Shown here: positions 20,279 through 21,636 of the stretch, in pieces
How the letters are laid out: each line of letters opens with the position of its first letter
How positions within the stretch are numbered: position 1 is the first letter of the stretch
IMG/VR virus record: IMGVR_UViG_2687453585_000002
Source: a virus
Taxonomy: Duplodnaviria; Heunggongvirae; Uroviricota; Caudoviricetes
Length of the DNA: 54,826 nucleotides
Reading direction: 5' to 3' (one strand)
Program-made: the position numbers and the translations under genes
Notes under the pieces: model-generated
What the model was told of the DNA's origin: nothing
The model's database searches: none
The model's input: the letters and a program-made list of their open reading frames with translations, nothing else

Positions 20279-20343
20279 AAATAATCCTCATGATTGTATT
20301 GACCTGTTGAAGTGGTTTACTGAATTTGGCCACCTGAACAGAG

Positions 20344-20682
20344 GTGATATGCTCACCTCAGAACAACACAGGTGCCATAATGAAAAAAAGAAATTTCAGC
20401 GCAGAGTTTAAACGCGAATCCGCTCAACTGGTCGTTGACCAGAATTACACCGTGGCAGATGCAGCCAGCGCTATGGATGTCGGCCTTTCCACAATGACGC
20501 GATGGGTGAAACAATTACGTGATGAGCGGCAGGGAAAAACACCAAAAGCCTCCCCTATTACCCCGGAACAAATTGAAATCCGTGAGCTCAGGAAAAAGCT
20601 ACAACGTATTGAAATGGAAAATGAAATATTAAAAAAGGCTACCGCGCTCTTGATGTCAGACTCCCTGAACAGTTCTCGATAA
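20344..20682 (+). CDS. IS3-family transposase OrfA (HTH)
   Basis: 112 aa; slippery A AAA AAG at 20631-20637 near 3' end. Confidence 0.85.
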
Positions 20683-20708
20683 TCGGGAAACTCAGGGCGC
20701 GTTATCCT

Positions 20709-21527
20709 GTGGCCACTCTCTGCCATGTGTTCGGGGTCCATCGCAGCAGCTACAAATACTGGAAAAACCGTCCTGAAAAGCCAGACGGCAGACGGGCTGT
20801 ATTACGCAGCCAGGTACTTGAACTGCATGGCATCAGCCACGGCTCTGCCGGAGCAAGAAGCATCGCCACAATGGCAACCCAGAGAGGCTACCAGATGGGG
20901 CGCTGGCTTGCTGGCAGACTCATGAAAGAGCTGGGGCTGGTCAGCTGTCAGCAGCCGACTTACCGGTATAAACGTGGTGGTCATGAACATGTTGCTATCC
21001 CTAACTACCTTGAACGGCAGTTCGCCGTGACCGAGCCAAATCAGGTGTGGTGCGGTGATGTGACCTATATCTGGACGGGTAAGCGCTGGGCGTACCTCGC
21101 CGTTGTTCTCGACCTGTTCGCAAGAAAACCAGTGGGCTGGGCCATGTCGTTCTCGCCGGACAGCAGGCTTACCATGAAAGCACTGGAAATGGCATGGGAA
21201 ACCCGTGGTAAGCCCGTCGGGGTGATGTTCCACAGCGATCAAGGCAGTCATTATACGAGCAGGCAGTTCCGGCAGTTACTGTGGAGATACCGGATCAGGC
21301 AGAGTATGAGTCGGCGTGGAAACTGCTGGGATAACAGCCCAATGGAGCGCTTCTTCAGGAGTCTGAAGAACGAATGGGTGCCGGCGACGGGCTATGTAAG
21401 CTTCAGCGATGCAGCTCACGCAATAACGGACTATATCGTTGGATATTACAGCGCACTAAGACCGCACGAATATAATGGTGGGTTACCACCAAACGAATCG
21501 GAAAATCGATACTGGAAAAAACTCTAA
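20709..21527 (+). CDS. IS3-family transposase OrfB (DDE integrase core), expressed as OrfAB by -1 frameshift
   Basis: -1 frame relative to orfA, open upstream to slippery site; DDE-type core motifs (e.g. [10 protein letters not shown]). Confidence 0.85.
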
Positions 21528-21636
21528 CTCGGTGGCCAGTTTTTGTTGACCACTTCATGTTAGCAGCCTGAGGCAACAGGCTGGAACTGATAAACATATC
21601 CAGGGCTCAGAAACCGATAAATCCTGATAAATATCC

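Follow-up and report, generated by a model that had tools for sequence, protein, structure and literature searches.

IS911 is an insertion sequence (IS) of the IS3 family, with its prototype in Shigella dysenteriae, and has been studied in the Chandler laboratory. The element makes OrfA and, through a frameshift, the fusion product OrfAB, which transposes it via a circular intermediate and generates a 3-bp duplication of the target. Transposition of this copy-out-paste-in type, via a circle that carries a junction promoter, is common to IS911 and the IS3 family. OrfA of IS911 comprises 100 aa, OrfAB 382 aa and each terminal repeat 36 bp (PMC2909936).

A copy of IS911 also resides in Shigella phage Sf6, where it lies within ninG, upstream of three genes required for late development, ninH, ninI and the late antiterminator gene Q, in a lambdoid/P22-like operon that depends on antitermination. 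The 3 bp GTT are duplicated on either side of it. A second known system that bears on the present locus is prophage Phi4 of the Escherichia coli ST131 strain EC958, which spans positions 1436674..1490889 of that genome (PMC5425062).

In this study we analyse a stretch of 54,826 nucleotides, hereafter the window, which represents prophage Phi4 of E. coli ST131 integrated next to ompW. We describe an IS911-like element in its lysis region, reconstruct the history of the insertion and outline its likely consequences for late gene expression.

Structure of the element

The element occupies positions 20308..21557 of the window on the + strand and comprises 1250 bp. We assign it to ISEc52, an IS911-like member of the IS3 family, on the basis of its sequence, of full-length copies that are 100% identical elsewhere and of the label given to them by the annotation pipeline PGAP. 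Its size, its imperfect inverted repeats and its 5'-TG...CA-3' termini, which read TGAAGTGG at the 5' end and CCACTTCA at the 3' end of the element in the window, are those of the IS3 family, the members of which measure about 1.2-1.5 kb. The left repeat (IRL, 36 bp, 20308..20343, + strand) and the right repeat (IRR, 36 bp, 21522..21557, - strand) agree at 25 of 36 positions when aligned end to end, including the outermost nine and a GGCCACC block. Either side of the element is bordered by TGT (20305..20307 and 21558..21560), a target duplication within the range of 3-5 bp seen in this family. When the flanks are fused with one TGT, the resulting 1000 nt are found unbroken and 100% identical in EC958, JJ1886, JJ1887 and many others among the complete E. 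coli genomes searched. Since this empty site with a single TGT exists in other genomes, the repeated TGT is not a chance match.

Two overlapping reading frames make up the coding region. The first, orfA (20380..20682, + strand), encodes 100 aa with a helix-turn-helix domain (HTH_Tnp_1, PF01527, E=6e-14), and the second, orfB (20628..21527, + strand), lies in the -1 frame, starts from ATT (AUU) at 20628 and encodes 299 aa with an rve/DDE integrase domain (PF00665, E=1e-31) as well as further Pfam matches to rve_3 (PF13683), rve_2 and HTH_21. Such an arrangement, with an HTH domain in orfA and an rve domain in an overlapping orfB in the -1 frame, is characteristic of the IS3 family. Within the overlap, the slippery heptamer A AAA AAG (20631..20637, + strand) provides a site for programmed -1 frameshifting. 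A conceptual -1 slip predicted from the sequence joins the two frames into an OrfAB of 382 aa, in which D227, D287, E323 and K330 form the family's DD(35)E triad followed by K, the K/R position seven residues past E.

The surroundings of the slippery site resemble those of IS911 without being identical to them. The GGAG located 5' of the IS911 site is GGAA in the window element, and with this change in the stimulator the yield of OrfAB could be below that of IS911. The RNA 3' of the slippery site can adopt a branched fold resembling the IS911 three-way junction; this fold is no stabler than those of shuffled sequences (z = -0.47), and the region therefore counts only as sequence conservation with IS911. 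The original prediction had placed at 20308-21557 an intact IS911-like element with terminal repeats, a TGT duplication and a frameshifted orfAB, and each of these features is borne out.

Relationship to IS911

The likeness of the window element to IS911 extends over its entire organization: a length of 1250 bp, TG...CA termini, repeats of 36 bp, an OrfA of 100 aa, an OrfB of 299 aa from AUU, an OrfAB of 382 aa, a -1 frameshift site A AAA AAG, the DD(35)E triad and a 3-bp target duplication. The window IRR is identical to a published IS911 IRR oligonucleotide at 36 of 36 positions, and IS911 copies show the same sequence over about 60 nt 3' of the slippery site. The differences concern IRL positions 9-11, which are CAC in the BL21 and Sf6 copies annotated as IS911 and TTT in the window element, the GGAG/GGAA exchange mentioned above and the PGAP name, which is ISEc52.

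At the DNA level, PGAP-labelled IS911 copies are about 94% identical to the window element. The copy annotated as IS911 in BL21 reaches 94.2% and that of Shigella phage Sf6 94.4-94.8%, and the Sf6 OrfAB shares 96.1% of its amino acids with the window OrfAB. K-12 IS911A, which is split by IS30 and truncated, is 96.9% identical over two fragments that cover only 764 nt. By the convention of ISfinder, isoforms of one element share at least 95% DNA identity. With the annotated copies as reference, the window element remains below this value (94.2% for BL21, 94.4-94.8% for Sf6). Conversely, copies 99.8-100% identical to it are labelled "IS3-like element ISEc52 family transposase" by PGAP in RefSeq E. 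coli genomes, and no difference was detected between these PGAP-named copies, which include the insertion in strain H105 itself, and the window element. Thus, judged by sequence identity, "IS911-like" is accurate, and comparison with IS911 refines the assignment to ISEc52, the current name under NCBI PGAP labelling.

Several observations concern the reference copies. The BL21 copy (NZ_CP053601.1 4387842-4389089) has an A5G slippery site, at which a normal -1 frameshift would fail to join orfA to orfB; nevertheless, it carries the PGAP remark "programmed frameshift". Because of this A5G site, the BL21 copy is unfit as a protein reference and was used for DNA identity only. The annotated coordinates of the IS911 mobile_element in Sf6 (NC_005344.1) are 3 nt off, the true start being TGAAGTGG with GTT/GTT flanks in ninG. 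Salmonella phage SEN22 (KT630648.2 / NC_028696.2) carries a copy of ISEc52 that is 99.8% identical and located in or beside the antirepressor gene, which is another case of ISEc52 residing in a phage genome.

Prophage Phi4 and the history of the insertion

Phi4 contains a lambdoid gene set that comprises int, xis, a cI-like repressor gene, cro, replication genes, Q, a DNA methyltransferase gene and two tRNAs. Further genes code for a NanS-like esterase, a P21-type class II holin, YdfR, the product of a divergent open reading frame (ORF), an endolysin, small ORFs and Rz/Rz1, followed in the inventory by structural genes for an HK97-type head and a lambda-type tail.

Aligned with EC958, window positions 1-20308 and 21558-54826 form two blocks of 20,308 and 33,269 nt without mismatches or gaps (53,577 nt in total); on the EC958 side the blocks share TGT and, by coincidence, one further T. 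Apart from the IS and its 3-bp duplication, the window does not differ from EC958 anywhere in 53.6 kb. EC958 Phi4 lacks ISEc52, shows TGT only once at this position and is otherwise identical, down to the lom gene split by ISEc12 and the invertible segment of tail-fibre genes, including its truncated invertase. That the IS and the TGT are the sole difference points to a simple and recent transposition.

The insertion is shared by a set of E. coli genomes. A 3-kb region bearing it was found in 77 of 5,426 complete E. coli genomes, a separate search with the 300-nt left junction likewise returned 77 of 5,426, and among the matches listed for the 3-kb region all 25 of 25 were 100% identical. The IS carriers recognisable by name belong to ST131. 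They include H105, a published C1/H30R CTX-M-27 reference strain, and the site is empty in EC958 and JJ1886. Its presence in 77 genomes suggests a lineage marker passed on by descent, that is, a single insertion event inherited within an ST131 sublineage, as far as genome comparison can tell.

The IS-free site also occurs, at 100% identity, in the phage record vB_EcoS-783R2. This record was considered as evidence of an inducible IS-free Phi4 and was set aside, since it may represent a prophage region defined in silico: the one paper found to name the series deals, by its title, with phages located in the genomes of clinical isolates. Literature searches found no report on Phi4 induction or lysis or on the ISEc52 insertion.

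Other regions of the prophage deserve mention in their own right. ISEc12, an element of the IS21 family, splits lom (Ail/Lom family) at approximately 44117-47302, with istA/istB at approximately 44690-46992; these coordinates were mapped from the EC958 annotation, and the insertion is common to EC958. At approximately 49321-52427 lies the invertible tail-fibre segment of Phi4, in which the DNA invertase is truncated and several tail-fibre genes are pseudogenes; it, too, is shared with EC958. Its inversion has been reported to need catalysis in trans (PMC4134206). Within the coding sequence annotated as portal, a 162-bp tandem repeat (30637-31169) occurs in 3.3 copies with 95% matches and no indels, equivalent to a repeat unit of 54 aa in this structural protein. 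Finally, the methyltransferase M.EcoMV (EC958_1545) is encoded 3' of Q at approximately 14600-16000, beside EC958_1546, the overexpression of which has been reported to enhance the motility of EC958 (PMC4659465, PMC5425062).

The lysis region and the insertion site

The late genes of Phi4 start about 5.4 kb downstream of Q. An intact Q-type late antiterminator is encoded at 13216..14037 (+ strand; PF03589, E=6e-51; phrog_127). The lysis region begins with the holin gene S (19476..19691, + strand), which codes for a class II (P21-type) holin of 71 aa with the dual start MYQM (PF04971, E=2e-32). It is followed 3' by the YdfR/DUF1327 gene (19696..20040, + strand), which was recognised by a profile match, and by a divergent ORF of 90 aa (20006..20278, - strand; WP_000369850.1), which matches phrog_2411 over its full length (E=1e-58). 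Downstream of the IS are the endolysin gene R, a phage lysozyme (21637..22170, + strand; PF00959), the gene for the Rz spanin (22813..23307, + strand; PF03245, E=4e-51) and, embedded in it, Rz1 (23033-23218, + strand; PF06085, E=2e-21).

The endolysin contains an N-terminal hydrophobic segment rich in Ala and Gly, which reads YGLSAAVLALIAAGAPAP, and the motif E35-x8-D-x5-T. By these features R looks like a SAR-type endolysin, and the cassette as a whole looks like the pinholin/SAR-endolysin type of phage 21: its predicted proteins match PF04971, PF00959, PF03245 and PF06085 and combine the signal-anchor-like N-terminus with the catalytic triad motif.

The element was inserted into the 105-nt intergenic spacer that separates the divergent 90-aa ORF from the endolysin gene, with the ATG of the former 26 nt away on one side and that of the latter 76 nt downstream on the other. 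No coding sequence is altered by the insertion, and the endolysin gene together with the 76 nt upstream is unchanged compared to EC958. The proposed location between the holin side and the endolysin (holin 19476-19691, endolysin 21637-22170) is thus correct, and so is the co-orientation with the late operon, since transposase, holin and endolysin genes are all on the + strand. The original claim that the IS splits the lysis cassette is true in the physical sense, but the insertion is intergenic and changes neither a lysis gene nor the 76-nt endolysin leader. As the IS lies 26 nt from the start of the 90-aa ORF, it parts this ORF from any upstream promoter. Judging from this layout, the divergent phrog_2411 ORF is most likely the gene whose expression would be affected.

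Late transcription and polarity

Taken together, we consider it probable, and with good confidence, that the locus reflects a recent simple transposition of ISEc52 into an intergenic spacer of the Phi4 lysis region, and that polarity on the downstream genes is weak or absent. By analogy with IS911, the ISEc52 OrfAB would drive copy-out-paste-in transposition via a circle and thereby generate the 3-bp duplication. The element would have landed in the 105-nt spacer between the 90-aa ORF and the endolysin gene of an ompW-integrated Phi4 in ST131. Upon induction, polymerase modified by Q and initiating at pR' would read straight through the IS, as it would through the upstream terminators. R and Rz/Rz1 would still be expressed from their own start sites with weak or absent polarity, and the divergent 90-aa ORF, cut from its upstream region, would most likely be the affected gene. 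The effect on lysis would probably be small. Pairing of IRL with the ribosome-binding site (RBS) of orfA would restrain translation of the transposase from the late transcript.

The most serious alternative is that the IS is polar, so that R and Rz/Rz1 are lowered or abolished and the Phi4 lineage, unable to lyse its host, is locked in. Insertion sequences are classically polar in ordinary operons, and this one, co-oriented with the operon, moves R a further 1253 nt away from S. Moreover, if the orfA RBS is occluded as predicted, Rho could find a long stretch of untranslated RNA to act on: the 1.25 kb would perhaps be poorly translated, which would favour Rho if antitermination were incomplete.

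The architecture of the late operon speaks against this alternative. Hairpins resembling terminators and followed by U-tracts are found on the + strand between Q and S at 14120-14135, 14448-14465, 16820-16841 and 19408-19436. The first of these, right after Q, looks like tR', and the last is located immediately upstream of the holin start. With four terminator-like hairpins before S, the genes S, R and Rz would be expressible only by Q-modified polymerase. Even without the IS, the + strand of Phi4 contains an untranslated gap of about 340 nt from ydfR to R, which transcription of the Q-antiterminated operon would cross in addition to the four hairpins. Q-loaded RNA polymerase has been described as deficient in pausing and termination (10.1101/2022.03.25.485794, the bioRxiv version of PMC9388147). 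A simple consensus scan, which is blind to Rho-dependent sites, detected no terminator-like site on the + strand inside the IS, and R retains its own unchanged 76-nt upstream region.

Sf6 offers a parallel in that its IS911 is situated upstream of the phage's Q gene. It differs in that a gene (ninG) is interrupted, the IS is oriented opposite to phage transcription and the operon affected is the early right operon, which is N-dependent rather than Q-dependent. By analogy, Sf6 is a precedent and not a proof. From an intact Q, the four upstream hairpins and the lack of a predicted intrinsic terminator on the + strand of the IS, we infer that strong polarity is unlikely on R, the small peptides and Rz/Rz1, for which the original prediction had envisaged possible polarity, and a Phi4 lineage locked in by a polar IS is improbable to the same degree. 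The original prediction therefore identified the element correctly and overstated polarity.

Transcription into and out of the element

Transcripts that enter the IS from the late operon are predicted to differ in structure from those that start within it. In an RNA hairpin predicted by folding (20324..20381, + strand), the IRL sequence GGCCACCUG pairs with the Shine-Dalgarno region of orfA, CAGGUGCC. A 93-nt RNA that contains both arms folds with -23.6 kcal/mol (z = -2.64; 3 of 200 shuffled sequences are as stable), and a 41-nt RNA without the left arm is essentially unstructured. According to these folding models, the hairpin requires a transcript that begins outside the IS and runs into it; there it probably limits translation of the transposase from the incoming late transcript.

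A second alternative is that the IS itself drives transcription into R, either from IRR, as part of an outward-directed or hybrid promoter, or by read-out from the internal promoter pIRL across a right end that lacks a terminator, and thus causes low constitutive production of a SAR-type endolysin in the lysogen. A TTGACC hexamer at 21546-21551 in IRR points outward, and the same hexamer is the -35 element of the IS911 junction promoter. From orfB to R there is no terminator-like site on the + strand, and the hairpin at 21563-21582 lacks a U-tract. Yet, a promoter scan of positions 19300-22300 revealed no sigma-70-like promoter on the + strand, and hence no outward or hybrid promoter at IRR; the hexamers located 16-18 nt past TTGACC (CTGAGG, TGAGGC, GAGGCA) are unlike TATAAT. 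Furthermore, pIRL is weak, and stable inheritance of the insertion in 77 genomes implies that any such expression is tolerated. Transcription of R driven by the IS is accordingly rated as highly unlikely.

A related scenario, nearly as doubtful, has two sides. As no terminator closes the IS on its right side and R begins only 76 nt downstream, transcription leaving the IS could provide the ST131 sublineage with a low level of Q-independent endolysin in the uninduced lysogen. Conversely, induction of Phi4 could trigger bursts of ISEc52 transposition. If this were true, the Q-independent endolysin could affect the cell envelope or vesicle release, and Phi4 induction would flood the IS with late transcription, with ISEc52 bursts as a possible outcome.

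The junction of a circularized element is a separate matter. In an IS circle with a 3-bp spacer, TTGACC (21546-21551) would be placed 17 nt from TTTACT (20316-20321), the latter hexamer being CACACT in IS911 copies. Judged by these hexamers, the -10 element of the junction promoter may be better in ISEc52 than in IS911.

Integrity of the transposase genes

The annotation of ISEc52 in public databases raises the issue of whether its transposase is functional. PGAP flags the H105 copy and an identical copy in DFK.1 as "frameshifted", with a coding sequence stretched to IS position 1242. The flag appears to stem from a run of six A residues near the 3' end of orfB (window 21508-21527), which is a run of five in the IS911 copies of Sf6 and BL21. 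With A6 the C-terminus of OrfAB reads YWKKL, and with A5 the protein has an end of the 389-aa type. A published IS911 primer, O5, spans the end of orfB, contains the A6 run and matches the window at 25 of 25 positions. This primer and the 382 aa published for OrfAB speak against deducing a dead transposase from the PGAP flag; because both fit the A6 form, the flag is instead read as a probable artefact of the reference protein, and an A5 variant of the 389-aa type is probably behind that reference. Since the A6 form matches published IS911 reagents, functional ISEc52 transposase genes may be systematically mislabelled in RefSeq.

Full-length copies of the element are common: a best match at least 99% identical was found on 450 plasmid records and in 940 E. 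coli genome records. The independent DFK.1 copy is flanked by its own 3-bp duplication, CAG/CAG. In terms of sequence, the window copy lacks none of the coding or terminal features that an active copy should possess, and the widespread near-identical copies together with the separate CAG/CAG duplication form the pattern of an active element. The weakest alternative, that the copy is a dead remnant with a transposase pseudogene, draws on the "frameshifted" label of the window insertion and the identical DFK.1 copy and on the A5 runs with 389-aa-type C-termini in Sf6 and BL21, and it is scarcely credible in view of the A6 run in the exactly matching IS911 primer O5, the published OrfAB of the same 382-aa length as that of the window and identical copies with fresh 3-bp duplications at many unrelated sites.

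Significance of the insertion

Public records already include the element, its host prophage and the insertion itself, all of them annotated, and nothing at this locus departs from the known biology of IS3-family elements or phage lysis. Knowledge of either remains unchanged, and the practical value of the finding is modest. The insertion constitutes a clean presence/absence marker that separates a sublineage within the pandemic clone ST131 from strains of the EC958 or JJ1886 type. Beyond that, this Phi4 lineage represents a natural test case for whether a late operon under Q antitermination can accommodate 1.25 kb of foreign sequence between its holin and endolysin genes.
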